In this document: piece after piece, positions 5,001-49,037 of the stretch | Layout: each line of letters opens with the position of its first letter | How positions within the stretch are numbered: the stretch's first letter is position 1 | Source: Pseudomonadota bacterium | Lineage (GTDB): Bacteria; Bdellovibrionota; FAC87; UBA2466 | Direction: 5' to 3' | DNA: 64,000 nucleotides | Assembly: GCA_043767805.1 (NCBI GenBank) | Contig: JAYUGC010000014.1 | Location: forward strand, 1-64,000 | Notes under the pieces: model-generated | What the model was told of the DNA's origin: nothing | The model's input: only the letters and a program-made list of their open reading frames with translations | Database searches by the model: none | Program-made: the position numbers and the translations under genes

Positions 5001-5002
5001 CC

Positions 5003-5092
5003 AAAAGGTGTGTGGATACTTTTAGCTAGGCAGCCGCCTCGCGAAAATACGCACGCGTTTTTTCAGCCGCTAAAAGTATCCACACACCTTTT
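5003..5092. repeat. REP/REPIN-like inverted doublet
   Basis: AAAAGGTGTGTGGATACTTTTAGC (5003-5026) and its exact reverse complement (5069-5092). Confidence 0.9.
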
Positions 5093-5516
5093 AGCCGGCG
5101 ATGGGTTGGGGGATGGCAATGGGGCGTCGGAGGGCGAGGGCCGCGCGCTGATAGGCCATGGCCCATTCGCGAGAGAGCTCGCCGGTCCAGGCGTCTTTGC
5201 GGGCGGAGGCGAGGGTGCGAAGCCAGGTTTCGCCGAGGGCCGCGAAGTGCACGTTTCTCACGCCGTTTTGGCGGAGCGAGCGGGCGTAAGGAGCCAGTTC
5301 CCGCGCGAGCTCGTCGGGATCTTCCAAGTGTTCGAGAATGAGGCGAAGGGCTTGGGCGGTCGCGCGCTCGAGATTTCCGGCGGCGAACGCGGGGAGCAGG
5401 CGCTTCATTTCGGGGTAAGTCTCAAACAGCAGACCATAGAAACGCGCGACGATCTCTTCCTCGGAAACTCCGAGCAACTTGAAAGAGTCCCGCACCAGTT
5501 TCGTGTTGATCGCCAT
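5091..5516 (-). CDS. Single-domain globin-like protein (proximal His absent)
   Basis: VRDSF...RFYGLLFETYPEMKRL...GVRNVHFAALGE...WTGELSREWAMAY follows the flavohaemoglobin-type globin pattern. Confidence 0.8.
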   Translation of the reverse strand: MAINTKLVRDSFKLLGVSEEEIVARFYGLLFETYPEMKRLLPAFAAGNLERATAQALRLILEHLEDPDELARELAPYARSLRQNGVRNVHFAALGETWLRTLASARKDAWTGELSREWAMAYQRAALALRRPIAIPQPIAG

Positions 5517-21133: not shown

Positions 21134-21264
21134 CGTACTCAAAGAGAAGTACAAGTCCCGGGCCAGATTCCCAGGCTCGCCGTTTCCGCCCAGATTGACG
21201 TTTCTTAGGGCGTATTCCCCCCGAATACCCTCGACCCAAGCCTGTACACCCCCTGTCCAACCCC

Positions 21265-21288
21265 AAAAGGTGTCTGGATACTTTTAGC
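21265..21288. repeat. Single REP-like unit
   Basis: AAAAGGTGTCTGGATACTTTTAGC, 1 mismatch to the 5003 copy. Confidence 0.85.
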
Positions 21289-32302: not shown

Positions 32303-33109
32303 TCAGGCAGCCTGGGAGGGGCTCTGGCCGGGGCGCTCGATCGATGAATCCGGGTAAAAAATCGCATTCGTATCGGGGGTTTCGGTCCGCATCCAGCGAT
32401 CCCAGAACGTGAAATAGAGGCCGTAGTTTCCGCGAAAGCGGGCGTGGTGGAGGCTGTGGTGGGTGGCATTGATGATCTGCCGCCCGAAGGAAGAGGTCTC
32501 AAATCGCCTCGGGTACATCTCATACCCCAAGTGATTGATGACCCCGAGGACGGTCATCCCCATGAGGAAAACGAGCAGAACGGCGAGGTGGGTCGGCACG
32601 AGCCAGACCAGCCCGGGGAGGACGATTGCCTGAATGAGGGCTTCCCACGGATGAAAAGAGAACGCGGCCCAAGGGGTGGGGTTGTGCGATTCGTGGTGAA
32701 CGAGATGCACGCGCCGAAATAGCGCCGGGTGATGGATCCAGCGGTGAGTCCAATAAAAATACGTTTCGTGAAGGAGCATTAGACACGGAAGACTCAAGAG
32801 GAGCCACGCCCAGCCGTACTCGTCCGGTTTCAAGTAGATCCGCAAATAACCTAAGTTCCAGGCGTGGAGAAGGACCGCGCCCGACACCGCGAAAATCGCG
32901 GAGGTCACGAGTGACCACCCGATCTCTTTTTGCATCCTTTCCTTCGGCGCGTTTTGCGCGCGCAGCTTTCTCGCCGAGGGAACCCCGCGCTTATAGAAGA
33001 GCCAGTAGAAGGCGCCCGCGAAGCAAAAATAGCGAGCCGTCAGGATGGTGAAAAGCACCATCGTGGTCTCCAGAAAGCCGGGCAGCTCGAATGGCAAAGG
33101 CGAAGGCAT
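32303..33109 (-). CDS. Sterol desaturase / fatty-acid hydroxylase family protein
   Basis: His boxes HRWIH, HLVHH, NHLG, HHSLHH; NYGLYFTFWDR. Confidence 0.9.
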   Translation of the reverse strand: MPSPLPFELPGFLETTMVLFTILTARYFCFAGAFYWLFYKRGVPSARKLRAQNAPKERMQKEIGWSLVTSAIFAVSGAVLLHAWNLGYLRIYLKPDEYGWAWLLLSLPCLMLLHETYFYWTHRWIHHPALFRRVHLVHHESHNPTPWAAFSFHPWEALIQAIVLPGLVWLVPTHLAVLLVFLMGMTVLGVINHLGYEMYPRRFETSSFGRQIINATHHSLHHARFRGNYGLYFTFWDRWMRTETPDTNAIFYPDSSIERPGQSPSQAA

Positions 33110-33166
33110 ACGTTTTACTTATCGGCATAAAAGCCCGGCGAGTGCAGCGGGGGCAACGCGAGGCGT

Positions 33167-34462
33167 CTATTTTGCGAGGTACCCTTTGAGCTGAACGTAG
33201 ACCCGGCTTCCCGCTTGAAAAGCCCCGAACTGACTGCGCGCCCCTCCGAGGAGCAAGTCGGTACCGAACATGAGCTCGAACTGCTGGGAGGTCGGAATGG
33301 TGTACTGCAAACGCGAAAGCGTACTGCCGTCGTGTATCGCCCAGCTCACAATCGCGTCCAAGCTTTGTTCGCGGTAAATCGGCGCTTTCACATTGGCCGA
33401 GAGGAGCTCGCGGTTTTTCGGTGTCGTGGAGGCCGCGTTCCAATGCGGAATGCCTTGGTAGGCGAACTGAATCGCCACGCGCCAGGGAAGCCAGCCCGTG
33501 TACTCCGCTTCGGAGGCGACGGTGACTTCGTCTCCCGTGTAAAAGGAGAGGCCCGTCGAATCGAACTTCTGAAACGCCTTGCCTTTCGTAAATAGGCTCT
33601 CCCAGCGCACCAGCCAGCTCGAATAATCCTTGGTGAAGGTGAGCCCGAGGGAGCCCACTCGACTATGGCTCGCGATGAGATCGAGCCCCGCCGGGCCGGG
33701 CGCGGAAGTGTAAACGGGCTGCCTGTCGAAATAAGTGAAGAAGAAGAAGCCGAGATCGTACCCCTGAAGTAGGGTCGTCATCCTTACGCCCACCTCTCCA
33801 TCCCCAATGGAGAATTTGCCTTGGGGATTATCGATGAGCCGGACAGGCGTGGTCGGGAAGAGATTTTTCCAGGGCGAAAAATCCCCGTCCACTCCCGGAA
33901 CGAGATTGAAGAACGGCTTCGGCGCGAAAAGAAATTGGATGGACGCGCCTTTGAGAAAAAACACCGTGTTCAGCATCGGCATCATGAGCCGCTGAGCGGT
34001 GAGATCTCTCAAGCCGAAGTCGCGCAGGTCTTTGGGATTGATTAGGTCGGCGTAATAAAAACCGAAGGCCTCGCCCCAGACCACTTGCTGATTGCCCAGT
34101 TTGACGAGGAGCCGCCGGGTTTTCGCCTGAAGATAAAAATCGCGGAGTCTCAGCTCCGCGGACTCGTCGTGACGGACTTGCGGGCCGTAGCGGTTGTCAT
34201 TGACGGCGAACGCCCCTTCGGCGTAAGCGCGAAGGCCAACCACCGCCATCCAGTCGGGATCGAACGTGAGTGTCTGCTCGGCATCGAGAATGTGGCGGTG
34301 AGAGGCGAGATCCCGCGGCGCTTTCGCGTGATAGGCAAGGCGTGACTCGGCCGTGATCTTGTAGCTCGTCGAAAAGCCCCATCTTGCCTGGGCCGAGGCC
34401 GAAGCCAGGGCGGCGGCGAGCGAGAGACTACGGCAGAGATTCTTTGTTGAAGAAGCTGTCAT
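33167..34462 (-). CDS. DUF1302-like outer-membrane beta-barrel protein
   Basis: LRDFYL...LGNQQVVWG...DLINP-x-D; beta-rich; follows a LolA-like gene. Confidence 0.65.
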   Translation of the reverse strand: MTASSTKNLCRSLSLAAALASASAQARWGFSTSYKITAESRLAYHAKAPRDLASHRHILDAEQTLTFDPDWMAVVGLRAYAEGAFAVNDNRYGPQVRHDESAELRLRDFYLQAKTRRLLVKLGNQQVVWGEAFGFYYADLINPKDLRDFGLRDLTAQRLMMPMLNTVFFLKGASIQFLFAPKPFFNLVPGVDGDFSPWKNLFPTTPVRLIDNPQGKFSIGDGEVGVRMTTLLQGYDLGFFFFTYFDRQPVYTSAPGPAGLDLIASHSRVGSLGLTFTKDYSSWLVRWESLFTKGKAFQKFDSTGLSFYTGDEVTVASEAEYTGWLPWRVAIQFAYQGIPHWNAASTTPKNRELLSANVKAPIYREQSLDAIVSWAIHDGSTLSRLQYTIPTSQQFELMFGTDLLLGGARSQFGAFQAGSRVYVQLKGYLAK

Positions 34463-35159
34463 CCAGCTTCTCCCGCTGGTAGTTGCTGTATCTGAGGTTG
34501 GAGCCCCGGCTCGTCTGCACTGCATCCTTGATCACCACGCGCGAGAGAATTTCCCGATCGAGCGCCTTCATGGGCATCGAGAACTCACCGGTCTTGAGAA
34601 GCTTGCCCGAGAGCGCGAAGAAGCCCGCGCGGAAAGGGCGATAGGTCGCCGGATCTACGAGCAGCTCGATGCGGCGGTAGGTGACATCGGGACGTTTCGC
34701 CGCGAGATTCAGTTTCAGGTAGCTCTTCCCGTCGACCGTCGCCATGCCTTTTTTCGAAGCTTTGTAGTCGACGTGGAAGCGGACGCGGGCGATGTCGCCG
34801 TTACTGACTTCGCCGGTCAAGCGCTGCTGAAAGCTCACGCGGGTCGGGCGCTTGATGCTGGGAAGATAGAGCCAAAGATCGTTGTCCCGCATGAGGAGCT
34901 TTCTGCCTTTTAAGCGCTCGGGCGCGGTGGTCTCGATGCGGGCCAGGTGATCGCCCTTGGCGAAAACCCGGTACTCGGTCTCGCGCACGACAGATTTGTC
35001 CTCCACGTCTTCGACGGTGACCGTGAAGGAGAAGTCGCCGCCCGGCGTGCGCATATCGTCCACCCGGCGGAGGATTTCATCCGCGTCCGGCCTCGCGGTG
35101 GGCGGTTTAGCGGCAAATGAAGTTGATGCGACGAGACAAAGCGCGAGAATCCATTTCAT
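34428..35159 (-). CDS. Outer-membrane lipoprotein-sorting protein (LolA-like)
   Basis: Signal peptide; KGRKLLM...LWLYLPS...QRLTGEVSNGDIAR; SGKLLKT. Confidence 0.85.
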   Translation of the reverse strand: MKWILALCLVASTSFAAKPPTARPDADEILRRVDDMRTPGGDFSFTVTVEDVEDKSVVRETEYRVFAKGDHLARIETTAPERLKGRKLLMRDNDLWLYLPSIKRPTRVSFQQRLTGEVSNGDIARVRFHVDYKASKKGMATVDGKSYLKLNLAAKRPDVTYRRIELLVDPATYRPFRAGFFALSGKLLKTGEFSMPMKALDREILSRVVIKDAVQTSRGSNLRYSNYQREKLDDSFFNKESLP

Positions 35160-35213
35160 CCAGATAGTTTAACCGTACCTTTACGGAGCGCTAACCGCGC
35201 TCCGTCATACGCT

Positions 35214-35810
35214 TTAGAACCACGCGGAGAGGGGCGGGAGGTCCGGCTTGTGGACCATGAGGAAGAAGATGATCAAGAGGGGTGCGAAGCCCAGGAAGTT
35301 GATGATCATCCGCCGCCACAGGAGCTTCTTCAGCTCCGCCGGTAAGACTTCGCTCCCTTTGGGCATCTCCGCGAAGAGGCGCTTCACCTTATGCTGATTG
35401 GGAATGTCCGCCACGATCCACACGAGCCCCGAGAGCAGGAAGAGGAGAAACGCCAGAGAAAGCCAGCCCATGCTCCAGACGCCTCCCAGAATAGTGCCAA
35501 GCATGATGCCCGACATCACCGAAAAGATGATGAGCGGCGCTGTGAAGACGGCGTCGAGCCAAAGTACGGTGCGGTAAGTGTGCTCGACGATAATCGGGTT
35601 ATCAGAGGTGAGACTTCTCAGCTCCCAGAGGGTGCCGATGACGGTGTTCGCAAAGAAAAGCGTCACGCACAAGATGTGAACGAACTTCACGTGCAAGTAG
35701 AGCTCGGGCCGCTCCAGCATGGACGTAAACGCGCGGGGGAAAAGAAGGCCGGCGAGCAGTAAGAACGCCATCAAACCGACATTAAAAATGAGAATCCGGC
35801 TCGTCTTCAT
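35214..35810 (-). CDS. DUF2269-family membrane protein
   Basis: KFVHIL...D-x-x-FTAP...LMVHKP. Confidence 0.75.
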   Translation of the reverse strand: MKTSRILIFNVGLMAFLLLAGLLFPRAFTSMLERPELYLHVKFVHILCVTLFFANTVIGTLWELRSLTSDNPIIVEHTYRTVLWLDAVFTAPLIIFSVMSGIMLGTILGGVWSMGWLSLAFLLFLLSGLVWIVADIPNQHKVKRLFAEMPKGSEVLPAELKKLLWRRMIINFLGFAPLLIIFFLMVHKPDLPPLSAWF

Positions 35811-36574
35811 CGGTTCAAGGCATCCACCAGATACGCGATATCGCCGCGGTGATAGTAAACCTTATCGGGGGCGCGGCTAAAGAACGGTCCCTTTACGCGG
35901 ACGTCTTTCAAGGCCGACCCTTCGATGGCGTGAAATCTCGCCGAGGTAAAACGGCTGTTGGTATTCACGAGATCGAAGGTTTTTCCTTCATTGAAGAAGG
36001 AGATGTCGTTGAAAGCGAGATAGTCGTCGGAAAGCCGAATCGTCGCCGTCATATCACTCAAGGGCTGATTGAGGGTAAAGCCCTCAAAGGCGATCTCGAG
36101 CTTGTCGCGGCCAAGCTCATACTTCAGCGGTACGAGCTTTCCGCACCCATAAATGAAAATCACCATCCGCTCGGCCATTTCACAGATTCGCCCGACGAGG
36201 CTCGGCTTTTCGTCCAAGGACACCAAGGGTGAGCCACTGAAAACGAGAATGCCTTTTCGGCCTTTCGGATCGGTCACGAAGGTATTTATCTCGCACCGGG
36301 CGCGGCGGATGTGAGCGAGCTCGGACTTCGGGTACTTGATGAGGTACAGGTTGTAGCTCACCCAAAACTCCGGAACGCAATCCTCGTCGGTAAAACGGAC
36401 TTTTTGGGGCATGAAGCCAGGGGGCAAGCACTCGCGAACGGCGTCCGCCTCCTCGGGAGAGAGCTTGAAGTTCACGAAGAGGGGATCGGTCGTCTCCAGG
36501 GCGAAAAACGTCTTGAGCCCCAGGCCGAGCTCCATGAACTTGAAGATGAGACGTTTCAAGAAAAACATCTTCAT
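35807..36574 (-). CDS. Hypothetical protein, possibly acetoacetate-decarboxylase-like fold
   Basis: Translationally coupled; LPPGF...RCEINTFV...G-x-x-G pattern. Confidence 0.5.
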   Translation of the reverse strand: MKMFFLKRLIFKFMELGLGLKTFFALETTDPLFVNFKLSPEEADAVRECLPPGFMPQKVRFTDEDCVPEFWVSYNLYLIKYPKSELAHIRRARCEINTFVTDPKGRKGILVFSGSPLVSLDEKPSLVGRICEMAERMVIFIYGCGKLVPLKYELGRDKLEIAFEGFTLNQPLSDMTATIRLSDDYLAFNDISFFNEGKTFDLVNTNSRFTSARFHAIEGSALKDVRVKGPFFSRAPDKVYYHRGDIAYLVDALNR

Positions 36575-37014
36575 CCCATCTTGAGGGCGAGCTTATATAG
36601 CCGGCCGAAGAGCGGAATCACCCCGATGGACTCCATGGGGTCGTAGTACTCGCGCTGGTAGATGACTTTTCCGTTCTCGACCTGGGCGTGCACGAGGCCA
36701 TGGATGGTCATCTCGAACCAGGTGAAACGGATCTTCAGGCTAATGGTCCATTTCCAGACGACGAGCTCCGGCGAGTCGACGAGGAGAGCGAAGTGAAACT
36801 TGTCGTTGGCGGCGCGCGGCACGTACTTCGCGAGCATCTTCAAGACTTCCGCCCGGCCATGCCTCTCGTGCACGGGGTCCACGTAATGGACGTCGTCGGC
36901 CAGCACTTCGCCCATCAACGCGACGTACTCGTCGAAACGGCGCGCGGGCAGAAGGACTTTGGAAACGTACTCGACCCGCTTGCCTACGGTATCGACATGG
37001 TGCGGAAAACTCAT
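36571..37014 (-). CDS. NTF2/SnoaL-like protein
   Basis: ADDVHYVDPV...GKVIYQREYYD. Confidence 0.85.
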   Translation of the reverse strand: MSFPHHVDTVGKRVEYVSKVLLPARRFDEYVALMGEVLADDVHYVDPVHERHGRAEVLKMLAKYVPRAANDKFHFALLVDSPELVVWKWTISLKIRFTWFEMTIHGLVHAQVENGKVIYQREYYDPMESIGVIPLFGRLYKLALKMG

Positions 37015-37023
37015 CCGCCCAAC

Positions 37024-38250
37024 TTAGACGACATTTCTCCGGAGGGCATCCGAGATTTCGAGCCGGGCGGCTCGCCAGGCGGAAATCAGGGCCGCGGCGG
37101 TCGCCGCGAAGAGGGACAGAGCCGTAGCGCCCAGGAAAGCGGCCAGAAAGAGGTCCACGTGCACGACGATGAAAGTCGTCGCCCCCGGCATGACGATCTT
37201 TATCCCCAAGGCGTTCAAGGTCGCGGCGAGGGCCGCGCCGAAGACGAGCCCAATCAGAGAGCCGAGAGCGCCCAGGATGAAGCCTTCCCGCAAGAATTGC
37301 CGGATGACGCTGCCTTGGGTTTCTCCCAAGGCGCGGATCGTTCCGATTTCGCCCGTGCGCTCGAAGACCGACATGCCGATGGTATTTGAGATCGCGCAAA
37401 GGGTGAGCACGCCGATGATGAGCGCGATGAGCAAGTTCTGCACGCGCAAGAAACCGGAAATCTGATTGTAGAGTTTCGCGACGTCGGTCCAGAGCTTCAG
37501 CTGCACGCCCGGATGTTCGGCCGCGAGCTTCGCCTGGAAGGCCCCGCCGATGGAGGCGGTAAGCGGGGTCGCGTGGAGGCCGACCAAGATTTGCTCGACG
37601 TCCGTGGTGTCTAGAAGCGCCTGGGTCGAGGACAGCGGCAAGTGAAACGTGAGATCGTCCACTTCGGCGATGCCCGTCTGGAAGAGCCCCGCCACTTCGA
37701 CGTCTTGGGCGTTGATGACGCCGTCAAACGTGTTGGCGATGAGGGTCAGAGAATCTCCGGTCTTTGCGCCGATGCGCTTCGCGAGTCCCTTCCCCAGAAT
37801 AACCTGGAAGGGGGCGTCGACGGTGAGGCCGTGGCCTTCGGTGAAAATCAGGCCGTCCTGGCGATCCTTTTCAAGCGCCGGATCGAAGCTGATGCCGCGC
37901 GCGCTCACCGACTGATCCTTCGTGCTCACCAAACCGTAGAAGGAGAGCCGTCCCGCCGCATATTTCACCCCGGGAGTTGCGTTCAAGTCCGCGAGGATTT
38001 TCGGATAATCCTTCAAGAGGCCTTCTTTCGGCTTCTTGACTTCGCTTTCCCAAAATTTCGCGTTGGCGATTTGGAGATGCGACGTCTGGGTGCGGATGGT
38101 CGTTTCTCTTAAAGAATCGACGAGGTTTCTGGTAAAGCCCTCAAAAATGAGAATGGAAGTGACGCCGGAGGCGATCATGAAGAGGTTCAGGGCCGTGCGC
38201 CGGCGGTTTCTGAAAATATTGCGGAACGCGAGACTCCAAAGCAACTTCAT
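37024..38250 (-). CDS. ABC transporter permease (LolC/E, FtsX family)
   Basis: LAFRNIFRNRRRT, MSVFERTGEIGTIRALG. Confidence 0.9.
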   Translation of the reverse strand: MKLLWSLAFRNIFRNRRRTALNLFMIASGVTSILIFEGFTRNLVDSLRETTIRTQTSHLQIANAKFWESEVKKPKEGLLKDYPKILADLNATPGVKYAAGRLSFYGLVSTKDQSVSARGISFDPALEKDRQDGLIFTEGHGLTVDAPFQVILGKGLAKRIGAKTGDSLTLIANTFDGVINAQDVEVAGLFQTGIAEVDDLTFHLPLSSTQALLDTTDVEQILVGLHATPLTASIGGAFQAKLAAEHPGVQLKLWTDVAKLYNQISGFLRVQNLLIALIIGVLTLCAISNTIGMSVFERTGEIGTIRALGETQGSVIRQFLREGFILGALGSLIGLVFGAALAATLNALGIKIVMPGATTFIVVHVDLFLAAFLGATALSLFAATAAALISAWRAARLEISDALRRNVV

Positions 38251-38969
38251 GCGGCCTGCCTTTCGAGAGCGGAGGTTACGGAGCCGTCACAGAGACGGAC
38301 GCCGTCGGTCGCGCGGGCGAGCACCAGGGGATCGTGGCTCGCGATGACGATGGTGAGGTTCTCGTGGGTGCGCAGGCCGTCTAAAAGCGTGAGAATCTCT
38401 TTGGTCGTCGCTTGGTCGAGGTTCGCGGTGGGCTCGTCGGCCAATATCACGCTCGGCTTTTTCACGAGCGCGCGCGCGATGGCGACTCGCTGGCGCTGTC
38501 CCCCGCTCATGTCGCCTGGCTTATGAGGCCCGAACTTTTCGAGGCCGACTTTGGTCAGCGCTTCCTGAGCGCGCGCCCGGCGTTCCGCGGCTCCCACACC
38601 CAAGAGAAGGAGCGGGTACTCCACGTTTTCCAGCGCGGTCAGCACCGGAAGCAAATTGAAAGTCTGAAAGATGAATCCGATGCGCTCGGCCCGAAGGCGG
38701 GCTTGGTCGCGCTGGTTGAGGGTGCCCAGCTCCTGACCGCCAATGAGCACGCGCCCCGAGGTGGGCCGATCGATGCCGCCCATCAGATTGAGCAGCGTAC
38801 TCTTGCCGCTGCCGGAGCTTCCGGCGAGCGCGTAGAAGGACCCCGTGGTCACCGAGAGTGACACGTTCTTCACAGCGGTCACGGTCATCTTGTTTAAACG
38901 GTACTCTCGGCAAACGCCCTCGACACTAATCGGAGTGTTGCCCGGAAACGGAAGAATTTTGGCAGTCAT
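38247..38969 (-). CDS. ABC transporter ATP-binding protein (LolD-like)
   Basis: GSSGSGKST, MSGGQRQRVAIARAL, ADEPTANLD. Confidence 0.92.
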   Translation of the reverse strand: MTAKILPFPGNTPISVEGVCREYRLNKMTVTAVKNVSLSVTTGSFYALAGSSGSGKSTLLNLMGGIDRPTSGRVLIGGQELGTLNQRDQARLRAERIGFIFQTFNLLPVLTALENVEYPLLLLGVGAAERRARAQEALTKVGLEKFGPHKPGDMSGGQRQRVAIARALVKKPSVILADEPTANLDQATTKEILTLLDGLRTHENLTIVIASHDPLVLARATDGVRLCDGSVTSALERQAA

Positions 38970-39022
38970 ACGCCTTACTTTTCGGCCGTTTGGCCGGAAA
39001 AGCTGAGGGAAAGAACGCTGTG

Positions 39023-40246
39023 TCAGAAGAAGCAGTGGCCGAGGCCGCGGTAGGTGGGGGCGCGGCCCACGAGAGTCCCGTTTCTGAGGAGGAGATAGTC
39101 GGGGAAACGCTCTGCAATTTCCCCGGCTTTGGCGGGGCGGCAAAACACGGGATCGCCGAGCGCGAGGCCATCTGCCGCCGGGCCTCGCAGCGGTGTTTGC
39201 ACTTCACCGAAGCCTTCGAGCGAAAGGGGGGCGAGCTCCCCGGGGAGAAAGACGGACGGCTGTTTCTCGGGGCCCAACGCGCCGCTCGCGATGAAGCCGC
39301 CGCTCTGACAGGTAACGACGCCAGGCTCGGGACGGCGAGCGACCGGGAGCGCGAAGGCAAAGGCCGGCGTGGAGGCATTGCCTTCGAAGTAGTCGAAGAT
39401 TTGCGACTGTAAAATCCCGGAGCCCACGGTGACTTCCGTCAAAACGGTTTCTTCGAGCGCGCCTTGAAAGGAGCCGGAGCCTCCGCCGTTAAAAAAATCT
39501 AGAACGGTTCCGCGGCTTTTGAGAAACGTGGCGATTTCCGCCCGCCGCCTTCGAATGCCTCTCCGAGAAAGAACTTTCATCGCCCGGCGAGCGAGATTGG
39601 AGACGGCCGCGCCCGGAACCCTATCGGGCACGCCGGCGACCTGCGCTTCGTACGCCATCACGCCGGTCAAGCGCACGCGGTCGCTCGCCAGAATCCGGTC
39701 GTGCAGGCGCGTGAAGCCCGCGAGATCCCGCACGGGAGAACGTTGCACGCCGATATGAAGCGAGCCAAACGCACGGAACGAAACATCGGCTTCGATACAG
39801 ACGTTCAGGCGAGCGCCTTTCGAAACGGCTTGCAGCACCGTCTCGATTCTCTCAACGTGCTCCACCGAGTCGATGACGAGGCTCACTTTTCGTCCGCGAA
39901 GAGAAAGACTGTGAAGGGCCTCGATATCGACCGCTTGGGCGGAAGGGTAAGCGACCATCAAATCGTCGAAGCCGAGATCTCCAAGGAACGCGGCTTCTCG
40001 GGCCGAGTAACACATCAGGCCCTGAAACGTGGGCGAGCCCGCGGCCAGAATCACTCGCAAGAGATCCGGCACTCGCACGGATTTCGTGGCGAGCCGCACT
40101 TTCTTTCCGGCTTTCTGCGCCCAGTCCGCGAATCGTCGCGTATTGGCCTCGACCAGATCCAGGTCGACCACCATCGCGGGCAGTGGCTCGTCTTTAAGGA
40201 GGGCCTTCAGCCGACCGTAATCCCAGGCCTTGGGCTCATTCGCCAT
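39023..40246 (-). CDS. Fold-type III PLP enzyme (D-threonine aldolase / DSD1-like amino-acid deaminase/aldolase)
   Basis: RLATKSVR (PLP Lys), MAYEAQ, NGGGSGS, EVTVGSG, RPAKAGE. Confidence 0.85.
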   Translation of the reverse strand: MANEPKAWDYGRLKALLKDEPLPAMVVDLDLVEANTRRFADWAQKAGKKVRLATKSVRVPDLLRVILAAGSPTFQGLMCYSAREAAFLGDLGFDDLMVAYPSAQAVDIEALHSLSLRGRKVSLVIDSVEHVERIETVLQAVSKGARLNVCIEADVSFRAFGSLHIGVQRSPVRDLAGFTRLHDRILASDRVRLTGVMAYEAQVAGVPDRVPGAAVSNLARRAMKVLSRRGIRRRRAEIATFLKSRGTVLDFFNGGGSGSFQGALEETVLTEVTVGSGILQSQIFDYFEGNASTPAFAFALPVARRPEPGVVTCQSGGFIASGALGPEKQPSVFLPGELAPLSLEGFGEVQTPLRGPAADGLALGDPVFCRPAKAGEIAERFPDYLLLRNGTLVGRAPTYRGLGHCFF

Positions 40247-41726
40247 GATCGCTCCCGCATTTTTGCCCGTGAGAATCGAGCCGGAACGCTATCGGTAAGA
40301 GACTTAGGAAACGGCCCGGCCCTTCTTGAAAGAGGGCGAGGGTCAGCTCGCGAAAGAGCCGGTACTTTTCTCGCGTGTAAGGAAACCAATTCGCCTCGAA
40401 CTTGCGATGGCTTTTGTCGAACAAAACGGATTTCTGATTGGTCATCTCTCGCAAGCCCGCCGCGCCTTTAGTGCGCCCGAAGCCGCTTGAGCCCACGCCG
40501 CCAAAGGGAAGGGCCGGATTGCCCTCGGTGAGCATGACGTTATTGACGGAGACGTTGCCCACTTTAAGGGCGGCGACCAGGCGATTCGCCCGCTTTGAAT
40601 CTTTCGTCCAAACGCTCGCCGACAAGCCAAAGGGCGAGTCGTTCGCGAGGCCGACGACTTCCGCTTCTTTATCGAACGGGACGAGAGGCAGCACGGGACC
40701 GAACGTCTCCTGACGCAGCAGAGCACAGTCGTTCGGAACGTTTTCCAAAATCAAAGGCGGGATCGCTTTCGAGACCCCATCCCAGCTTTCTCCGGTGAGA
40801 AGGCGCGCCCCGCGAGCCTTGGCCTCGTCGATGTGCTTTTTGACGGTGGCGACTTGAAAATCGGTCGTCATGCGGCCGAGATCCACCGCGGTATCGCGGC
40901 CCGGTTTTTGGACGAGCTTCGCCGCCCGAGTCAGCAGGCGCTTCTTGAACTCCTCGAAGGCCGGGCGCTCCACGTACAGTCTCTCCACCGAAGTGCACGA
41001 TTGACCGAGATTCGTGAGGCCTCCCCACAGGGCTCCCGCCGCGGCTCGATCGAGATCCGCGTCGGCGAAAACGATCATGGCGTCTTTGCCTCCAAGCTCG
41101 AGGGTCACCGGAATCAAAAGAGGCGCGGCCTGGGCCAGCACCTTTTTACCGGTGGCGACGCTGCCCGTAAAAACGATGCGTTCCGGCGCCGAGGCAATGA
41201 GGTGCGAGGCGGTCTGCCCGTCACCGTAGATAATCTGAATCCAGTTTGAGGCGATACCCGCTTGCACGAAGAGGCCTTCGAGAAGCCCTTCGAGCGGAGT
41301 CCATTCGGAGGGCTTGAAGACGACGCTATTGCCCGCGAGAAAAGCCGACATCATGGGTACGAGGCCCAGGTAGAAGGGATAGTTCCACGGAGAAATCACT
41401 AGGACGGTGCCGAGCGGATCGTAGCGAAGGCGCGAGCGCTTGCCGAAAAGCGCGATGGGAGTCCGGATCTTTTCCTCAGCGAGGATCTTCGGGCCTTCCC
41501 CTTCCAGAAAATGCAGATAGTCGAGTGTCGAGAAGATTTCCGAGACGAGAGCGTCGGTGCGCGGCTTTCCGGTGTCGTTTGAAATGCGCTCCACGATTTC
41601 ATCGAGCCGGCCCAGAATGGCGCGCTTGAGATTGCCACAGCGTTGCGCTCGAGCCGCGAGCGTGAGGCCCGCAACTTCGGCTGCTGCACCCCGCGCGCGC
41701 TCTCGGATGTCTTGCGTGGGCGTCAT
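40236..41726 (-). CDS. Aldehyde dehydrogenase
   Basis: ISPWNYP, FTGS, LELGGKD, GQSCTS, QETFGP, PFGG. Confidence 0.93.
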   Translation of the reverse strand: MTPTQDIRERARGAAAEVAGLTLAARAQRCGNLKRAILGRLDEIVERISNDTGKPRTDALVSEIFSTLDYLHFLEGEGPKILAEEKIRTPIALFGKRSRLRYDPLGTVLVISPWNYPFYLGLVPMMSAFLAGNSVVFKPSEWTPLEGLLEGLFVQAGIASNWIQIIYGDGQTASHLIASAPERIVFTGSVATGKKVLAQAAPLLIPVTLELGGKDAMIVFADADLDRAAAGALWGGLTNLGQSCTSVERLYVERPAFEEFKKRLLTRAAKLVQKPGRDTAVDLGRMTTDFQVATVKKHIDEAKARGARLLTGESWDGVSKAIPPLILENVPNDCALLRQETFGPVLPLVPFDKEAEVVGLANDSPFGLSASVWTKDSKRANRLVAALKVGNVSVNNVMLTEGNPALPFGGVGSSGFGRTKGAAGLREMTNQKSVLFDKSHRKFEANWFPYTREKYRLFRELTLALFQEGPGRFLSLLPIAFRLDSHGQKCGSDHGE

Positions 41727-42100
41727 GGAGCGGTCTCCCGTTGAATGTGCGTGTCCCAGCCGAGGCGCTTGCGAATGGCTGGGTCAGAGTAATAAAGCGT
41801 GTAGAGAAACCCCTTCACACCCAGATCGAGCTGTCTGAGGAGCGAGCCCACGGGATCGGGAAAGCGAGAGGCGTGGCCCGCGAGCCAAAAGAGCGCCGCG
41901 ATGGCCCAACTGGGCAGCCAAGCAAAAAGCTCGGCGAGATCGACGAGCTTTTTGCGATCGCCCCCGGGTAAATAGGCGAGCATGCGATCGACTTCTCGAA
42001 TGAGACCGCTTTGCGAGAAAGACGGAAGTCCTTCCGTTCCCGGCACGAGAAGATCGCCGGCTTTCTCCATTCCGCGTGTCGCTTTGGGAGTGAGGATCAT
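41723..42100 (-). CDS. Small partner protein of the GMC oxidoreductase (gluconate-2-dehydrogenase subunit 3-like)
   Basis: Coupled on both sides; GDLLVPG...PSFS...LYYS...LGW pattern. Confidence 0.6.
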   Translation of the reverse strand: MILTPKATRGMEKAGDLLVPGTEGLPSFSQSGLIREVDRMLAYLPGGDRKKLVDLAELFAWLPSWAIAALFWLAGHASRFPDPVGSLLRQLDLGVKGFLYTLYYSDPAIRKRLGWDTHIQRETAP

Positions 42101-43479
42101 TTGATTACCTCCGCGGCGGCCCGAAGGGACAAAGCTAAAATGGTGAGGGATGGGTTTAAGCCAGGGGCACTCGGAAAGACGGAGGAATCGGCGGAGTAGA
42201 CGTGCTTTTCGCCGTGGAGTCTGAAGTCGGCGCCGACCACAGACGTTTTCGGATCTCTCCCCAGCGCGCATCCACCCATCAGATGAAGCCCGATGGTTAC
42301 GCGGCCGGGGAGAATCTGCCGGGCGCCGGTCGACCGAAAAATGCGGGAGATGGCGTTCATGCCGGCGGCTCGCCTGCGCAAATCTTCCGCGTTCCAGTTT
42401 TTATCGACGACCGTAGCGCCTCCCGGGCCAACTCGAATCTGACCGGCGTTCGTGTCTCGCACGGCCACTTCGATGCACGCGAAATGGCGAAGGCGAGTCA
42501 TCATCGTCTGATGGGCTTTGCCAGCTTGGGGCAAGAGCATCGCGAGGCCCACGGGCGGCGCGAAAACATTTTCGAGTTTGAAGCCTTGGCGGCGAAACCC
42601 CGGGTCATCGGATTTCATCGTCTGAAAAGATCCCCGAAAGGCATCGACGGGCTCGTCGTAGAGCGCGAGCACCATCTCTTGCGGGTGGGTGTAGAAGCCC
42701 GTGCCGGTCGCGGGAAGTTTATCCGCGTACCCCGACTGCAAGAGCAACTTGCTATTGCCGATGGCGCCGCCCGCAAGAATGAGTCTCCGGCCCGAAAAGT
42801 GGGCGAGCGTCCCGTCTTTCAAGCGGACGTGCACTTCGGCGCCGTCGTCATCGGAGCGCACGCCAAGCACTTCGGTTTCCGCGTAGAGCTCTAGTCCTGC
42901 TTCGAGCGCGTGCTTGAGCGTCGTGACGGGGGTGCTTTGCTTGCTGTCCAGCGGACAGCCTTGCAGGCACTCGATGCAATCGTTGCCTTCCTCGTTCTTA
43001 CAATCCTTCTGAGCGCGGCGGAGGGCGGCCGCTTGATACCCGTTCCTGCGGAATCCCTCGTCGAAAATGCGCGCGTTCCGGTTTCGCTTTGAGCTTGGGA
43101 TCGTTTGGAGCGAAAGCTGGGCTTCCGCTTTCTCGTACCAGGGGGCCATTTCGCGCGGAGAAAAGAGAGAGGTGCCAGAAAGAGCTTCCCACTCATCCAA
43201 AGCGAGAGCATCGAAGCGATCGGCCAGCGCCTGGTTGACGATGGTGCCGCCGCCGACGGCTTTGGGCCGGAGGAGACCGAGGTCGGCCCGCCGGTTCAAC
43301 TCGATTCCGCCCGCCCAATAGAGCTGGCTACTCGCGTCGATTTCCTCGCGGGGGTAGGTGGCCGCGGTGAAATGCTTGCCCGCTTCAAACAGCGCGCATT
43401 TGAGGCCCGCGCGACAAAGCTCTTGAGCAAAGGCGGAGCCCGAAACCCCGGACCCCACGATAAGGGCATCATAGCGCAC
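42097..43479 (-). CDS. GMC-family FAD oxidoreductase
   Basis: VGSGVSG, VGGGTIVN, CIECLQGCP, HLMGGC, DSSVFPSAPGLNPSLTI. Confidence 0.92.
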   Translation of the reverse strand: MRYDALIVGSGVSGSAFAQELCRAGLKCALFEAGKHFTAATYPREEIDASSQLYWAGGIELNRRADLGLLRPKAVGGGTIVNQALADRFDALALDEWEALSGTSLFSPREMAPWYEKAEAQLSLQTIPSSKRNRNARIFDEGFRRNGYQAAALRRAQKDCKNEEGNDCIECLQGCPLDSKQSTPVTTLKHALEAGLELYAETEVLGVRSDDDGAEVHVRLKDGTLAHFSGRRLILAGGAIGNSKLLLQSGYADKLPATGTGFYTHPQEMVLALYDEPVDAFRGSFQTMKSDDPGFRRQGFKLENVFAPPVGLAMLLPQAGKAHQTMMTRLRHFACIEVAVRDTNAGQIRVGPGGATVVDKNWNAEDLRRRAAGMNAISRIFRSTGARQILPGRVTIGLHLMGGCALGRDPKTSVVGADFRLHGEKHVYSADSSVFPSAPGLNPSLTILALSLRAAAEVIK

Positions 43480-43495
43480 GCGCCTATTCTAACGC

Positions 43496-43712
43496 GCTAA
43501 AAGGTGTGTGGATACTTTTAGCTAGGCAATTGCCTTTTGGAAATCAAGAGCCAATAGGGCGCACGCGCCGTTATTTTGGCTAAAAGTATCCACACACCTT
43601 TTAGCCCCCCAAAAGGGCCCTGGATACTTTTAGCCAGCGCGGGCATGCCGCTTGCCCGTCTAAAAGTGTCCACACACTTTTTAGACGCTTAATGTGTCCA
43701 GACACCTTTTAG
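43496..43712. repeat. Cluster of five REP-like units
   Basis: GCTAAAAGGTGTGTGGATACTTTTAGC (43496-43522), exact inverted copy (43579-43605), degenerate copies at 43611-43634, 43660-43684, 43694-43712. Confidence 0.9.
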
Positions 43713-44977
43713 AAGTCGGCGAGGGTGATGTTGGCGAGATTGATCTTGTTGGCGAAGACGGAATAGCAGAGGTAGGCCGCGAGGCACTTGCGGTTCTCGA
43801 GCCACGGCGGTTCGTACAGCGGATTTTTGATGAAGCCAGTCGCGAAGAACGGCTCGAGCTGAACGATGTCGGCGAGAGTGAATCGCCCGGCGAAGAGATG
43901 CTCGGCGTAGTGAAACTTATTGGCTTGAATCGCCTTGCGCAAAAACGTGTGGGTGAAGATGAGGCCGCGCAGGTAGACGCAGTCCTTTGTAAACACCACG
44001 CCGCCCTTGGGATTGCCGCCGCGAAAAATGCGCGCGGCCGACTGGAAACTTTCGGTATCTTCCTGTCCCGCCGCGAGAAAGTACTTAAACACTTCGATGA
44101 AGTCGGCGCCGTCCAAAGCCATCTGAATCCCGTGAATGCGCAAGGCAATGCGCTCCAGACGGTTCAGGTCGATGGAAGAGGTGAAAAGCTCGGCGAAGGT
44201 GGCGATGCCTTCTTGAGTCGCCGTGGTGCGGGGCGATCCGAGCCCGAGACTTGGCAAATTTTCCTGCGCCATCCCGTTCAAGGCGGTCAGCATGTGGACG
44301 TAGCCTTCATGATGGACGAGCTGGGGCAAATCATGCGCGGAAAAGCAGGTCGCGTCTCTAAGGCGCACCCGCTTCGGGCCCGCCGCGGCTTTGGAGGCGA
44401 GCTTCGGATCGACGATAATCTCGATCTTGTGATGCTTAAAGAAGGGAACGAGCTCTTTTCTGAGAGTCTCCGCCGCTTGCTCCGCGGGGATGCAATATTC
44501 CCCGTCGTTTATCTTGTAGGCCGAGACAAAATCGCGCGTGCTCTCGATGAAGTAGTCGGCGGCTTGCAAGCTCGAGAGCTGATTGAGGCCGATGGCGTCG
44601 CTCGGTTTTCCGTAGAGCTCGATGGAGAGCTCGGTGAAAAGAGGCGTGCCCACGGCTCCGATGAGGCGCGCCGCCGTTACGTACGACTCGGCCGTCTGAT
44701 AAATGTAGTTTCCGATGGGGTGGCGTTGATCCGCCTCCGCCATGATCGCTTTCAGCTCTTTGATGTTTTCCCGGTGATCGGGCGGGGTGTACTCCACCCG
44801 CGGAATCCTGGGCTTTCCGGCGCGCCAGGATTTCACGAAAGCGGTGCTGCGCTCCTCGTCCCACGAGAGCGTCGTCAGAATCTTGATGGGCTTTGCGGCC
44901 GCCACCAATTTGCGATCGAGCTCGGTGAAGCGGGCGAGTTGCTTGGCGGCTTTTTCTTTGGGAAGGGCGGAAGTCAC
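43709..44977 (-). CDS. QEGLA-motif / DUF1704 protein (HExxxH metallocarboxypeptidase-like)
   Basis: HHEGYVH, TATQEGIA, RIFRGG, FTKD-x-x-YLRG. Confidence 0.88.
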   Translation of the reverse strand: MTSALPKEKAAKQLARFTELDRKLVAAAKPIKILTTLSWDEERSTAFVKSWRAGKPRIPRVEYTPPDHRENIKELKAIMAEADQRHPIGNYIYQTAESYVTAARLIGAVGTPLFTELSIELYGKPSDAIGLNQLSSLQAADYFIESTRDFVSAYKINDGEYCIPAEQAAETLRKELVPFFKHHKIEIIVDPKLASKAAAGPKRVRLRDATCFSAHDLPQLVHHEGYVHMLTALNGMAQENLPSLGLGSPRTTATQEGIATFAELFTSSIDLNRLERIALRIHGIQMALDGADFIEVFKYFLAAGQEDTESFQSAARIFRGGNPKGGVVFTKDCVYLRGLIFTHTFLRKAIQANKFHYAEHLFAGRFTLADIVQLEPFFATGFIKNPLYEPPWLENRKCLAAYLCYSVFANKINLANITLADF

Positions 44978-47819: not shown

Positions 47820-49037
47820 ATGCGAACCCAGATCAGAGTAGGGCTGTTGGCCCTGTTTATTTCGGTATCAGCTTTTGCCGTCGACGCGCGCGTCGCGGGC
47901 GAGGCCAGTAACCAATTCGGCGTTCAACTTTTTAAATCGACCACGAAGCGGACGGCGAAGGGAAATAAATTTCTTTCGCCGCTCTCGGCGTACTTAGCGC
48001 TCTCGATGGCCTACAACGGCACCGAGGGAACTACCCAAGCCGAGATGGAAAAAGCGCTCGCGCTCACGGGCATGACCCGCGATGAAGCGAACGATGCCAA
48101 TCGTCAGCTCATCGCCGCGCTCACCACGGGCCGCGACTTTGACTTGAGCGTCGCCAACTCCCTCTGGGCTCGTAACCAGTTCGTGATGAAGGACACCTTC
48201 TTGAATCCCGTGCGCACGAACTACGGCGCTCGCCTCGAGATGCTGGACTTCGATTTGCCCACCGCCTCGAAAACGATCAACGACTGGGTTAAGACCGCGA
48301 CCCATAGCAAGATCGACTCCATCGTTCCGGACAAGCTCGATCCGCAGCTTCGCCTGGTGCTCATCAACGCGACCTACTTCGAAGCGAAGTGGACGGCCCC
48401 GTTTCAAAACTCGGGCACGTACAATGAGCCCTTCAAACGCCCTGACGGCACGCGCGTGATTGTCCCCACCATGCACAAAGCCATGGTGGGTAAGCACCTG
48501 AAGGCCAGAGAGTATGAGGCCATCGAGCTCCCGTACGGCAAATCGGCGGAAGCCTCGATGATCGTCGTGGTCCCCACGGACCTCGCGGCTTTCGAGACCG
48601 CGCTCTCGGCCAATCAATGGAAATACATCGCTACTCAGCTCACCGCCGCGCCGGCCGAGCTCGGAACGCTTGCGCTTCCGAAAGTGGAGATCACCTACGA
48701 GTCGAGCCTCGTCGATTCGCTCAAGCAACTCGGCATGGTTCGGGCCTTCGATCTGAAGAACGCTGAGTTTAAGCCGTTGAGCGACGAACAAGTCGGCATC
48801 TCCGATGTGCTTCAGAAAACCTACGTAAAGGTATTCGAAGAAGGCACCATCGCCGCGGCCGTCACGAGCGTCAGCGTCGGTGCGGCTTCGATTCCGCAGT
48901 ACAAATTCCAAATGAAGGTGGATCGCCCGTATCTCTTCGGCATCCAGGACAAGAAAACCGGCACGCTCCTTTTCATGGGAACCGTGCAGGAGCCCGAAGG
49001 CGGCAAGCTTCCGCCTCCGCCGAAGCCTCGCCCTTAG
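47820..49037 (+). CDS. Secreted serpin (serine protease inhibitor)
   Basis: FLSPLS, INDWV, LINATYF-x-x-KW, EEGTIAAAVT hinge, DRPYLF, LFMG. Confidence 0.93.
   Translation: MRTQIRVGLLALFISVSAFAVDARVAGEASNQFGVQLFKSTTKRTAKGNKFLSPLSAYLALSMAYNGTEGTTQAEMEKALALTGMTRDEANDANRQLIAALTTGRDFDLSVANSLWARNQFVMKDTFLNPVRTNYGARLEMLDFDLPTASKTINDWVKTATHSKIDSIVPDKLDPQLRLVLINATYFEAKWTAPFQNSGTYNEPFKRPDGTRVIVPTMHKAMVGKHLKAREYEAIELPYGKSAEASMIVVVPTDLAAFETALSANQWKYIATQLTAAPAELGTLALPKVEITYESSLVDSLKQLGMVRAFDLKNAEFKPLSDEQVGISDVLQKTYVKVFEEGTIAAAVTSVSVGAASIPQYKFQMKVDRPYLFGIQDKKTGTLLFMGTVQEPEGGKLPPPPKPRP

Follow-up and report, generated by a model that had tools for sequence, protein, structure and literature searches.

Introduction

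How bacteria break down sphingoid bases is unsettled, and the sole proposal, SphCD of Pseudomonas, is unproven. In eukaryotes the base is phosphorylated at C1, and sphingosine-1-phosphate lyase, a fold-type I enzyme, then yields phosphoethanolamine and a fatty aldehyde, which passes to an aldehyde dehydrogenase (ALDH). For Pseudomonas aeruginosa, published accounts describe a SphR regulon in which sphBCD stands with sphA and with cerN, the gene of a neutral ceramidase; the same two-step chemistry that we consider below has been proposed for it, unproven, and sphD is described as dispensable for growth with sphingosine. Sphingoid bases are antimicrobial lipids of hosts and, in Bacteroidota, Myxococcota and Bdellovibrio-like bacteria, components of the membrane too (PMC10626005). 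Here we analyse a string of twelve consecutive, like-oriented genes on the minus strand (43479 to 32303) in a 64,000-nucleotide stretch of DNA (hereafter the window; positions 1 to 64,000 of contig JAYUGC010000014.1, assembly GCA_043767805.1) from a member of the Bdellovibrionota.

An earlier sequence-only reading of the window had taken the string for one undescribed pathway, in which a dedicated trans-envelope transporter takes up a lipid, possibly a sphingoid base, for oxidation and retro-aldol cleavage, and had cited the Pseudomonas sphBCD genes as precedent. The precedent was quoted correctly, that pathway being itself only predicted. The twelve co-directional open reading frames (ORFs) also stand, with the families and limits given, as judged by ORF coordinates and Pfam; the title of that reading counted eleven genes, and it is its own list of twelve that holds. 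On balance we lean towards a narrower account: the string is a genus-specific mosaic join, and its first four genes (module A) form a cytoplasmic module for the oxidation and cleavage of sphingoid bases. Read in this way, the striking twelve-gene string should not be taken as one pathway, and module A offers a concrete, widely distributed and directly testable candidate gene set for sphingoid-base degradation. We found no description of a ceramidase-linked cluster of a GMC- or ALO-type flavoenzyme, an ALDH and a pyridoxal-phosphate (PLP) enzyme in the literature searched, which lay mostly outside subscription journals.

Results

The enzymes of module A

Module A opens with a GMC-family flavin adenine dinucleotide (FAD) dehydrogenase (42097..43479, on the minus strand like the rest of the string), which scores 85.1 bits against GMC_oxred_N (cut-off 23) and 62.9 bits against GMC_oxred_C (cut-off 24.6); its N-terminus reads GSGVSG, in keeping with the GxGxxG pattern of FAD binding, and no signal peptide was found on reading it. 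Six residues (C160, C168, C171, C175, H399 and N442) are invariant in 17 orthologues and at least 90% conserved in 22, and the invariant cysteines form the motif C-x7-C-x2-C-x3-C. A profile of the 17 orthologues found as its top matches the FAD-glucose dehydrogenase of Burkholderia (FAD-GDH; 6a2u_B, E 5.5e-25) and the fructose dehydrogenase of Gluconobacter (FDH; 7w2j_A). C168, C171 and C175 align with the CC..NCMPICP motif of 8k6k/7w2j and 6a2u, in a Cys-rich stretch that we take to hold the iron-sulfur (Fe-S) cluster of these dehydrogenases, and the four-Cys motif of the window's enzyme would be of the same Fe-S type, with a putative cluster. H399 and N442 align with H and N in the C-terminal block of 6a2u_B, presumably the catalytic pair of the GMC superfamily.

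The start of the second gene (41723..42100) overlaps the GMC stop by 4 nt; its true start is the ATG that yields MILTPK, and its 125-residue product, which belongs to no known family, is kept beside the GMC enzyme in other phyla. The two proteins are predicted to bind as a heterodimer (ipSAE 0.92 vs. 0.01 for the best of 3 controls, with our own alignments supplied; the mark applied to this score was reached by 116 of 157 solved complexes vs. 2 of 215 mismatched pairs), and the score may in part reflect likeness to the solved FAD-GDH/FDH complexes. Predicted contacts agreed in at least 91% of runs, the partner had a predicted local distance difference test (pLDDT) value of at least 86, and the interface takes in GMC residues 161-177, that is, the Cys motif. 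The aligned Cys motif and the small-subunit partner are thus what this enzyme shares with FAD-GDH (6a2u) and FDH (7w2j). It differs from them in that the string has no cytochrome c subunit (a Pfam scan found no cytochrome domain in any of the 12 ORFs), in that the small subunit has neither a family nor a twin-arginine signal (none at the N-terminus in 17 aligned sequences), and in that the enzyme, unlike these periplasmic sugar dehydrogenases, would be cytoplasmic and act on a lipid amino alcohol. The hydrophobic segment of the small subunit and the C-terminal tail of the ALDH, weighed as possible membrane anchors, reach Kyte-Doolittle maxima of 1.4-2.6, with a Pro and charged residues within the segment.

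The third gene (40236..41726) encodes an NAD(P)-dependent ALDH (Pfam Aldedh, 373 bits) whose C-terminal tail is about 55 residues long; among solved structures it is closest to betaine-aldehyde and aminoaldehyde dehydrogenases (E 2e-66), and it scores below every NCBIfam equivalog cut-off. The fourth (39023..40246) encodes a fold-type III PLP enzyme (Ala_racemase_N, PF01168, 32 bits) with a match to D-threonine aldolase 7dib in the PDB (E 4e-12); its AlphaFold2 (AF2) model (pLDDT 85.6) was matched by Foldseek to 6qkb, 7dib and 4v15, a D-3-hydroxyaspartate aldolase and D-threonine aldolases, with template-modelling (TM) scores of 0.72-0.81. With the group of D-threonine aldolase, BhcC and D-serine dehydratase it shares the two-domain fold and the PLP lysine, K55, which is conserved without exception in 20 sequences and matches the Lys of 4v15 and 6qkb in alignment. 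It differs from that group in being only 18-21% identical, in having no detectable PF14031 domain and in carrying Glu for His: the invariant E200 stands at a position occupied by His in 4v15 and 7yqa and by Gln in 6qkb. We take the His of the AYHG stretch to be the proposed base of D-threonine aldolase and His plus Asp/Cys to form its metal site, the residues of which fall outside the region covered by the sequence alignments. The BhcC model scores the window's enzyme at 61 bits vs. a cut-off of 690, and 1377 of 8000 candidates scored are relatives at E <= 0.001. Judged by these sequence comparisons, the PLP enzyme represents a distinct, large and uncharacterised family within the D-threonine-aldolase fold group.

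Of the known systems, the SphR regulon comes closest to module A, and the two are alike in joining a flavin oxidoreductase to a threonine-aldolase-like PLP enzyme with a link to neutral ceramidase. The two differ in their redox parts, SphC being linked to flavin mononucleotide (FMN), exported by the twin-arginine (Tat) route and periplasmic, with the cytochrome c SphB, whereas module A has a cytoplasmic GMC enzyme with FAD, a putative Fe-S cluster and a novel small subunit (in relatives an ALO-type oxidase takes the place of this enzyme), and an ALDH. Neither a signal peptide nor a cytochrome nor an FMN-oxidoreductase domain, by which SphBCD would be recognised, was found in the module A proteins; by this comparison the resemblance is functional only, and module A is not a member of the SphBCD type.

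Linkage of the PLP family to ceramidases

Module A is read as a sphingoid-base module because relatives of its PLP enzyme adjoin ceramidases, and in this the enzyme half of the sequence-only reading gains support. A scan anchored on the PLP gene, with one genome per species, gave 138 related places, of which the best 80 were taken as loci; a phylum sample of 401 genomes, including the source genome (G000) and one other genome of the same genus (G171), was also searched, and three fetched loci are duplicates among those from the G-numbered genomes. In a Bacteroidota locus (L069), the stop of a canonical neutral ceramidase gene (PF04734, E 7e-114) overlaps the start of the PLP gene. Divergent ceramidase-like genes (29.5-35.5 bits) abut the PLP gene in three further loci (L017, L031 and L058), and their best PDB matches are the human and Pseudomonas neutral ceramidases, with the THTHxGP stretch aligned.

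The ceramidase family (PF04734) occurs in 62/401 genomes of the phylum sample (35/204 genera) and in 0/14 control genomes, and the PLP family in 57/401. Ceramidase was found in 30/57 PLP-positive vs. 32/344 PLP-negative genomes, an odds ratio of 10.8 that ignores relatedness, and in 18 genomes, representing 7 genera, no more than 1.5 kb separates the two genes. We fetched eight such loci, in all of which Pfam confirmed the ceramidase (215-333 bits). Four (L172, L173, L174 and L178) hold ceramidase, an ALO oxidase and the PLP enzyme in a row. Another, L175, has a ceramidase, then PLP-GMC-small-ALDH (GMC 52% and ALDH 54% identical to the window's), then an EEP phosphodiesterase; L177 has the PLP gene, ceramidase-ALDH and small-GMC; L179 reads PLP-EEP-ceramidase; and L176 has the ceramidase and the PLP gene alone. 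The sole solved relative of the EEP protein at E <= 0.01 is human sphingomyelin phosphodiesterase 2.

A GMC gene lies nearby in 11/12 other fetched PLP loci, and the full GMC-small-ALDH-PLP set is carried by Myxococcota, Binatota, Bacteroidota, Acidobacteriota, Thermodesulfobacteriota and Bdellovibrionota. The PLP gene of Bacillota has the gene of the same ALO-type FAD oxidase (FAD_binding_4 plus ALO) after it, and cultured bacteria with this pair include Brevibacillus borstelensis, Priestia taiwanensis and Oceanobacillus. Two unrelated flavin enzymes for alcohol oxidation, of GMC or ALO type, therefore alternate beside the PLP gene, and adjoining them are hydrolases that would reduce a sphingolipid to its base. 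Other neighbours are AAT-family N-terminal nucleophile (Ntn) hydrolases (L032, L024), a penicillin-amidase-family gene (L058), enoyl-CoA hydratases (L004, L080) and an alkyl sulfatase (L005), and these amidases, hydratases and the sulfatase fit a lipid amide theme. In a tree of the PLP family (FastTree with Shimodaira-Hasegawa-like (SH-like) support; 101 sequences, 98 distinct), ceramidase-linked members fall in three separate parts, among them L017, which lies inside the supported 39-row clade of the window's enzyme.

In 10 mostly Myxococcales loci the PLP gene adjoins the gene of a large secreted protein with a GHSMG motif, which has no Pfam family. In L072 (9958-13146), from a metagenome-assembled genome (MAG) of a delta-proteobacterium, the PLP enzyme and this protein share one frame of about 1060 residues and may be fused; L047 and L046 were listed with it for the same pair. 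Many Bdellovibrionota genomes have short divergent ceramidases of 430-530 residues besides full-length ones. The source genome has a ceramidase-family ORF of the short divergent form (contig C11, 497 residues, 99.6 bits), and there (L192:6824-12048) it is flanked by a pectinacetylesterase/Notum-family esterase and another esterase, with an MGDG-synthase-like glycosyltransferase nearby.

Modules B and C and the hydroxylase

Downstream of module A the string continues with a second set of four genes, module B, which is split by a third set, module C. Module B comprises an ATP-binding cassette (ABC) ATPase of LolD/MacB/DevA type (38247..38969; ABC_tran 126 bits; TIGR02211 LolD 225.8 bits, under the cut-off of 307.75), an FtsX/MacB-type permease with a periplasmic core domain (37024..38250; FtsX 57.6 bits, MacB_PCD 37.2 bits; TIGR02212 lolCE 100.2 bits, under 362.45), a periplasmic LolA-like protein (34428..35159; PF17131 124 bits; TIGR00547 15.8 bits, under 112) and a DUF1302-like outer-membrane barrel (33167..~34462; PF06980 41.8 bits vs. 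a cut-off of 23.2, over profile positions 85-378 of 541 only). On reading the N-termini, the LolA-like protein has a signal peptide and no lipobox Cys, and the barrel begins with a signal-peptide-like stretch. Module B is thus like LolCDE-LolA-LolB in having a MacB-type ABC pair and a LolA-fold periplasmic protein, all below the Lol equivalog cut-offs. With its closest analogue described so far, the gammaproteobacterial cluster of DUF1302, DUF1329, BNR and resistance-nodulation-division (RND) proteins, it shares the outer-membrane barrel, and it differs from it in having PF17131 for DUF1329 and an ABC transporter for RND, and no BNR protein. In two preprints, mutant fitness data show an inner-membrane exporter to be co-fit with the DUF1302/DUF1329 pair, for which the export of an envelope component or a part in the use of fatty esters was proposed (bioRxiv 10.1101/072470, 10.1101/2020.07.04.188060).

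Relatives of the barrel occur in 73/401 genomes of the phylum sample, with the LolA-like gene adjacent in 28/30 loci. All four module B genes (barrel, LolA-like protein, ABC ATPase and FtsX permease) cluster within a few kb in 12/12 enlarged loci, none of which has genes of module A or of the module C trio. The source genome has a single strong copy of module B, and the same set stands alone in other genera of the family. Beside it, in one locus each of the 12, are an FA_hydroxylase gene, an Mpo1-like gene plus GT4, a GT28-type transferase and FeeM, and a small OMP barrel adjoins it in three. The Mpo1-like gene (2-hydroxy-palmitate dioxygenase family; L162:7454-7837 in G004) directly adjoins the barrel gene, and the FeeM-type N-acyl amino acid synthase gene (L169:3925-5241 in G148) directly adjoins the LolA-like gene; these two neighbours hint that module B handles an acyl lipid. 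To our knowledge, type VII (MacB/Lol-type) ABC systems extract or expel cargo outward and none imports. Because the known systems push outward, module B is, by analogy, most likely a separate Lol-like route between the inner and outer membranes for a hydrophobic cargo, working as an exporter or extractor. Uptake through it, the direction favoured by the sequence-only reading, is unsupported, and the transporter is not dedicated to module A.

Module C is a trio of a SnoaL-like NTF2-fold protein (36571..37014; SnoaL_2 36.9 bits), a 255-residue protein with a putative acetoacetate-decarboxylase-like fold (35807..36574; no Pfam match) and a DUF2269 integral membrane protein (35214..35810; PF10027 73 bits). 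The 255-residue protein occurs in 18/401 genomes of the phylum sample, 15 of them in the window's family. In 16/17 fetched loci the fixed trio stands without other genes of the string, and its neighbours elsewhere are housekeeping genes (FabF, SHMT, tRNA synthetases). The AF2 model of the 255-residue protein (pLDDT 89.1) was matched by Foldseek to 3bgt and 3c8w (E 4e-7 to 8e-7, with TM scores of only 0.43-0.51). Acetoacetate decarboxylase has a Schiff-base Lys in its active site; the sole invariant Lys here is K12, in an N-terminal helix, with none outside that helix. In three genomes of one genus in the window's family (L159-L161 from G120, G143 and G104), a small OMP_b-brl_2 barrel and a protein of about 250-285 residues lie between the DUF1302-like barrel and the ABC genes, the position held in the window by the trio.

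The last gene of the string (32303..33109) encodes a membrane di-iron protein of the fatty-acid hydroxylase/desaturase family (PF04116, FA_hydroxylase, 97 bits). Besides G171, only one genome (G203, L120/L167) has a homologue next to module B, which ties the hydroxylase loosely to module B.

The string as a mosaic

Seven of the 11 junctions in the string are overlaps (4, 4, 11, 4, 4, 4 and ~35 nt) and four are gaps (53, 9, 54 and 57 nt), the three longest of which coincide exactly with module boundaries. Ten of the 12 ORFs exceed curated Pfam cut-offs, and the small subunit and the 255-residue protein have zero Pfam or NCBIfam matches. Scanning with consensus patterns gave no internal sigma-70-like site (0 vs. 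2.9 expected from shuffles) and no enrichment of terminator-like sites (19 vs. 16.3 ± 4.1 expected). On this sequence layout, the twelve genes are probably one co-transcribed unit.

Outside the genus the modules stand apart. Because the ORF caller loses genes to antisense ORFs in GC-rich loci, our locus counts rest on tblastn of the window's twelve proteins rather than on ORF calls. Within 4 kb of the PLP gene, 32/80 loci have a GMC orthologue and 18/80 have GMC plus ALDH, whereas orthologues of the window's transport genes were found in 1/80, and that one (L001, Pseudobdellovibrionaceae, with a PLP protein 81% identical to the window's) is the contig of the same-genus genome G171. In the 54 loci that extend at least 4 kb to each side, GMC is found in 19, GMC and ALDH are both missing from 35, and a single one holds transport genes. 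The full string in the same gene order occurs elsewhere only in G171 (1/80 PLP loci, 0/28 other barrel loci, 1/17 trio loci). Within the window's family the PLP gene is present in 5/34 genomes, spanning two genera, and g5, the sister genus, has its PLP, barrel and trio genes on separate contigs. Across the 401 genomes we found no phyletic association of the PLP enzyme with the barrel, which is present in 8/57 PLP-positive vs. 65/344 PLP-negative genomes (odds ratio 0.70). Because the modules stand apart in this way, we read the string as a mosaic and not as one pathway: as far as gene neighbourhoods tell, three modules that evolved independently (A; B, which C interrupts; and C) and a membrane hydroxylase have been joined in this genus only. 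Their joint expression here may link sphingolipid turnover to the handling of envelope lipids, and the modules need not depend on each other.

That the barrel, the LolA-like protein and the ABC transporter import a sphingoid base or another long-chain lipid that the enzymes then cleave, in one dedicated pathway, we think unlikely. The co-directional packing, with its seven overlaps and no promoter-like site inside, and the identical gene order kept in G171 speak for such a pathway, as do the genes of lipid-related function beside module B elsewhere (FA_hydroxylase, Mpo1-like, FeeM and glycosyltransferases), each seen in 1/12 loci. Two distant loci also echo the join, and they count against full independence of the modules. 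In L004 (Myxococcales), a DUF1302 and DUF1329/LolA_like pair adjoins module A, and in L016 two FtsX/MacB permeases stand directly upstream of the PLP gene; taken with the tight packing, they hint that module A may repeatedly have been tied in function to machinery for envelope lipids. Both the L004 and the L016 neighbours were missed by tblastn and found later by Pfam, which covered selected neighbours rather than all 80 loci, so that weaker transport neighbours may remain unseen; custom hidden Markov models (HMMs) of the barrel, the LolA-like protein and the permease, run on six-frame ORFs of the 80 loci, matched in L001 and L016 only. Against a single pathway stand the confinement of the full junction to one genus, the absence of a phyletic tie between the PLP enzyme and the barrel, the occurrence of module B alone in other genera of the family, the unrelated housekeeping neighbours that the mid-string trio has elsewhere, and the fact that no MacB/Lol-type ABC system known to us imports. 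The sequence-only reading had staked its single pathway on the recurrence of enzyme and transport halves together in other genomes, and beyond the genus that recurrence comes down to the two partial echoes.

A proposed route for module A

The route that we favour for module A would start from a sphingoid base freed from ceramide by a ceramidase. The GMC/small-subunit heterodimer would oxidise the C1 hydroxyl of the 2-amino-1,3-diol, with electrons leaving through FAD and the Fe-S cluster, and the ALDH, or a second turnover of the flavoenzyme, would complete the oxidation to the D-erythro 2-amino-3-hydroxy acid. The PLP enzyme would then cleave C2-C3 in a retro-aldol reaction to give glycine and a fatty aldehyde, which would finally be oxidised to the fatty acid. 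A GMC enzyme plus an ALDH is the usual pair for turning an alcohol into an acid. On stereochemical grounds, C1 oxidation of a (2S,3R) sphingoid base should give a D-configured β-hydroxy amino acid, the substrate class of the aldolase group. We favour this order of steps because the D-configured product fits the fold group, because GMC and ALDH are paired, and because a GMC enzyme acting on chloramphenicol sets a precedent.

In the latter case, the primary hydroxyl of chloramphenicol, an N-acyl 2-amino-1,3-diol, is reported to be taken by the GMC enzyme to the acid in two steps through the aldehyde, which inactivates the drug (CapO/CmO; PMC9590159). The likeness lies in the chemistry on an N-acyl 2-amino-1,3-propanediol; CapO/CmO is distant in sequence (8b7s, E 3.8e-16, N-terminal part only) and has neither a small subunit nor a linked PLP enzyme. 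With the eukaryotic sphingosine-1-phosphate lyase route, module A would share a PLP-dependent C2-C3 cleavage and a fatty aldehyde that passes to an ALDH, and it differs from it in having no linked kinase, a PLP enzyme of fold type III and a linked oxidase or dehydrogenase.

Several observations weigh against assigning module A to sphingoid bases in this way. No ceramidase gene lies adjacent to the string or in the window, the source genome's own being on another contig; G171 (93% complete), the other carrier of the full string, has no ceramidase match; and 27/57 PLP-positive genomes likewise have none. The ceramidase-PLP odds ratio carries no correction for kinship, and the 18 adjacent cases all fall in two families, f10 and f14. 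The ALDH is not adjacent in 14/32 GMC-linked loci, which a two-step oxidation by the GMC enzyme would explain. The nearest solved relatives of the GMC and ALO oxidases act on sugars or polyols. Finally, the PF14031 C-terminal domain was not found at E <= 0.01 in the PLP protein, in the whole genome or in 121 phylum genomes, and its absence, together with the Glu in place of His, may mean that the PLP reaction differs from retro-aldol cleavage; of the control genomes, only Caulobacter and Corynebacterium matched PF14031. Direct cleavage of the unoxidised base, oxidation at C3 first, and a polar substrate are less probable alternatives.

The first two of these keep the sphingoid base as substrate and change the order of events, and we judge them improbable. 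In the one, the PLP enzyme would cleave the base directly, leaving the fatty aldehyde to the ALDH and the C2 fragment to the flavoenzyme; in the other, C3 would be oxidised and the 3-keto-amine then cleaved, by the logic of threonine dehydrogenase and KBL. Loci in which ceramidase and PLP genes occur with no flavoenzyme (L069, L031, L058 and L176), ALO-type clusters that lack an ALDH, and the invariant Glu where two solved D-threonine aldolases have His would all suit such an order, and secondary alcohols are frequent substrates of relatives of both flavoenzyme types (the matches include cholesterol oxidase, pyranose 2-oxidase and fructose dehydrogenase). However, the characterised members of the fold group among the matches all act on α-amino acids, the ALDH has aminoaldehyde dehydrogenases as its nearest solved relatives and forms with the GMC enzyme the classic alcohol-to-acid pair, and the chloramphenicol enzyme is a reported case of a GMC enzyme producing an acid from an analogous 2-amino-1,3-diol scaffold.

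Rather doubtful, in our view, is a polar substrate, with module A degrading a small amino alcohol or an amino derivative of a polyol or sugar, such as serinol, an aminated sugar acid or the head group of a lipid, and its ceramidase neighbours serving the salvage of head groups or amides. The glucose and fructose dehydrogenases nearest to the GMC enzyme would agree with this, as would the ALO family, which by its Pfam name comprises sugar-lactone and alditol oxidases, the small aminoaldehydes used by relatives of the ALDH, the D-threonine, D-serine and 3-hydroxyaspartate used by relatives of the PLP enzyme, and a Na:alanine symporter among the Bacillota neighbours; moreover, the 35/54 well-flanked loci with neither GMC nor ALDH can be counted on this side. 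They are opposed by the adjacency of ceramidase in 18 genomes of 7 genera, plus Bacteroidota and two other lineages, and by the sphingomyelinase-like EEP, Ntn amidase, enoyl-CoA hydratase and alkyl sulfatase neighbours, and no conserved sugar or polyol transporter was found beside module A.

Synthesis and export of a modified lipid, with the PLP enzyme joining glycine to a fatty aldehyde and the transport proteins (ABC, LolA-like and barrel) delivering the product to the outer membrane, would match the outward mechanics of type VII ABC systems known to us and the lipid-making neighbours of module B elsewhere (FeeM, glycosyltransferases, FA_hydroxylase), but is very improbable, since the oxidising GMC and ALDH pair leads to acids and not to lipid building blocks, the linkage to sphingolipid hydrolases (ceramidase, EEP) indicates catabolism, and nearly all module A loci have no exporter.

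Returning to module A as a sphingoid-base oxidation and cleavage module, a much bolder extension can be drawn, which we offer as speculative and on present evidence quite unlikely in its entirety. It would make module A part of a widespread bacterial breakdown of sphingolipids that does without sphingosine-1-phosphate lyase and uses a sphingomyelinase-like phosphodiesterase, a neutral ceramidase, a flavoenzyme (GMC/Fe-S with the novel small subunit, or ALO), in some cases an ALDH, and a new PLP lyase of the D-threonine-aldolase fold. Here these enzymes would have been brought into one operon with a Lol-like conduit of ABC, carrier and barrel proteins and with the hydroxylase, a join particular to the genus, and the type VII ABC system would help to retrieve or remodel sphingolipids of the outer membrane or of prey.

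Sequences around the string

The genes on either side are unrelated to the string: IF-1-like and FKBP genes lie downstream, and a MATCAP-family (PF08014) metallopeptidase-like gene (43709-44977, minus strand) lies directly upstream. A 25-bp dyad repeat (CTAAAAGT..N10..CTTTTAG type) is present four times in 43480..43712, 5' of the GMC gene, and further copies in the window lie at 5001-5094 and 21263-21287. The repeat has about 40 copies genome-wide on more than 30 contigs (the pattern gave 39 forward and 35 reverse matches across the source genome vs. 0 and 1 for a reversed control), often in inverted pairs 50-80 bp apart and also at contig ends. It looks like a dispersed element of the repetitive extragenic palindromic (REP) kind, and the genome-wide dispersal of the motif rules out the array upstream of the GMC gene as an operator specific to the string. 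Farther upstream of the string, on the plus strand at 47820-49037, the window holds the gene of a full-length bacterial serpin (PF00079, E 5.6e-97).

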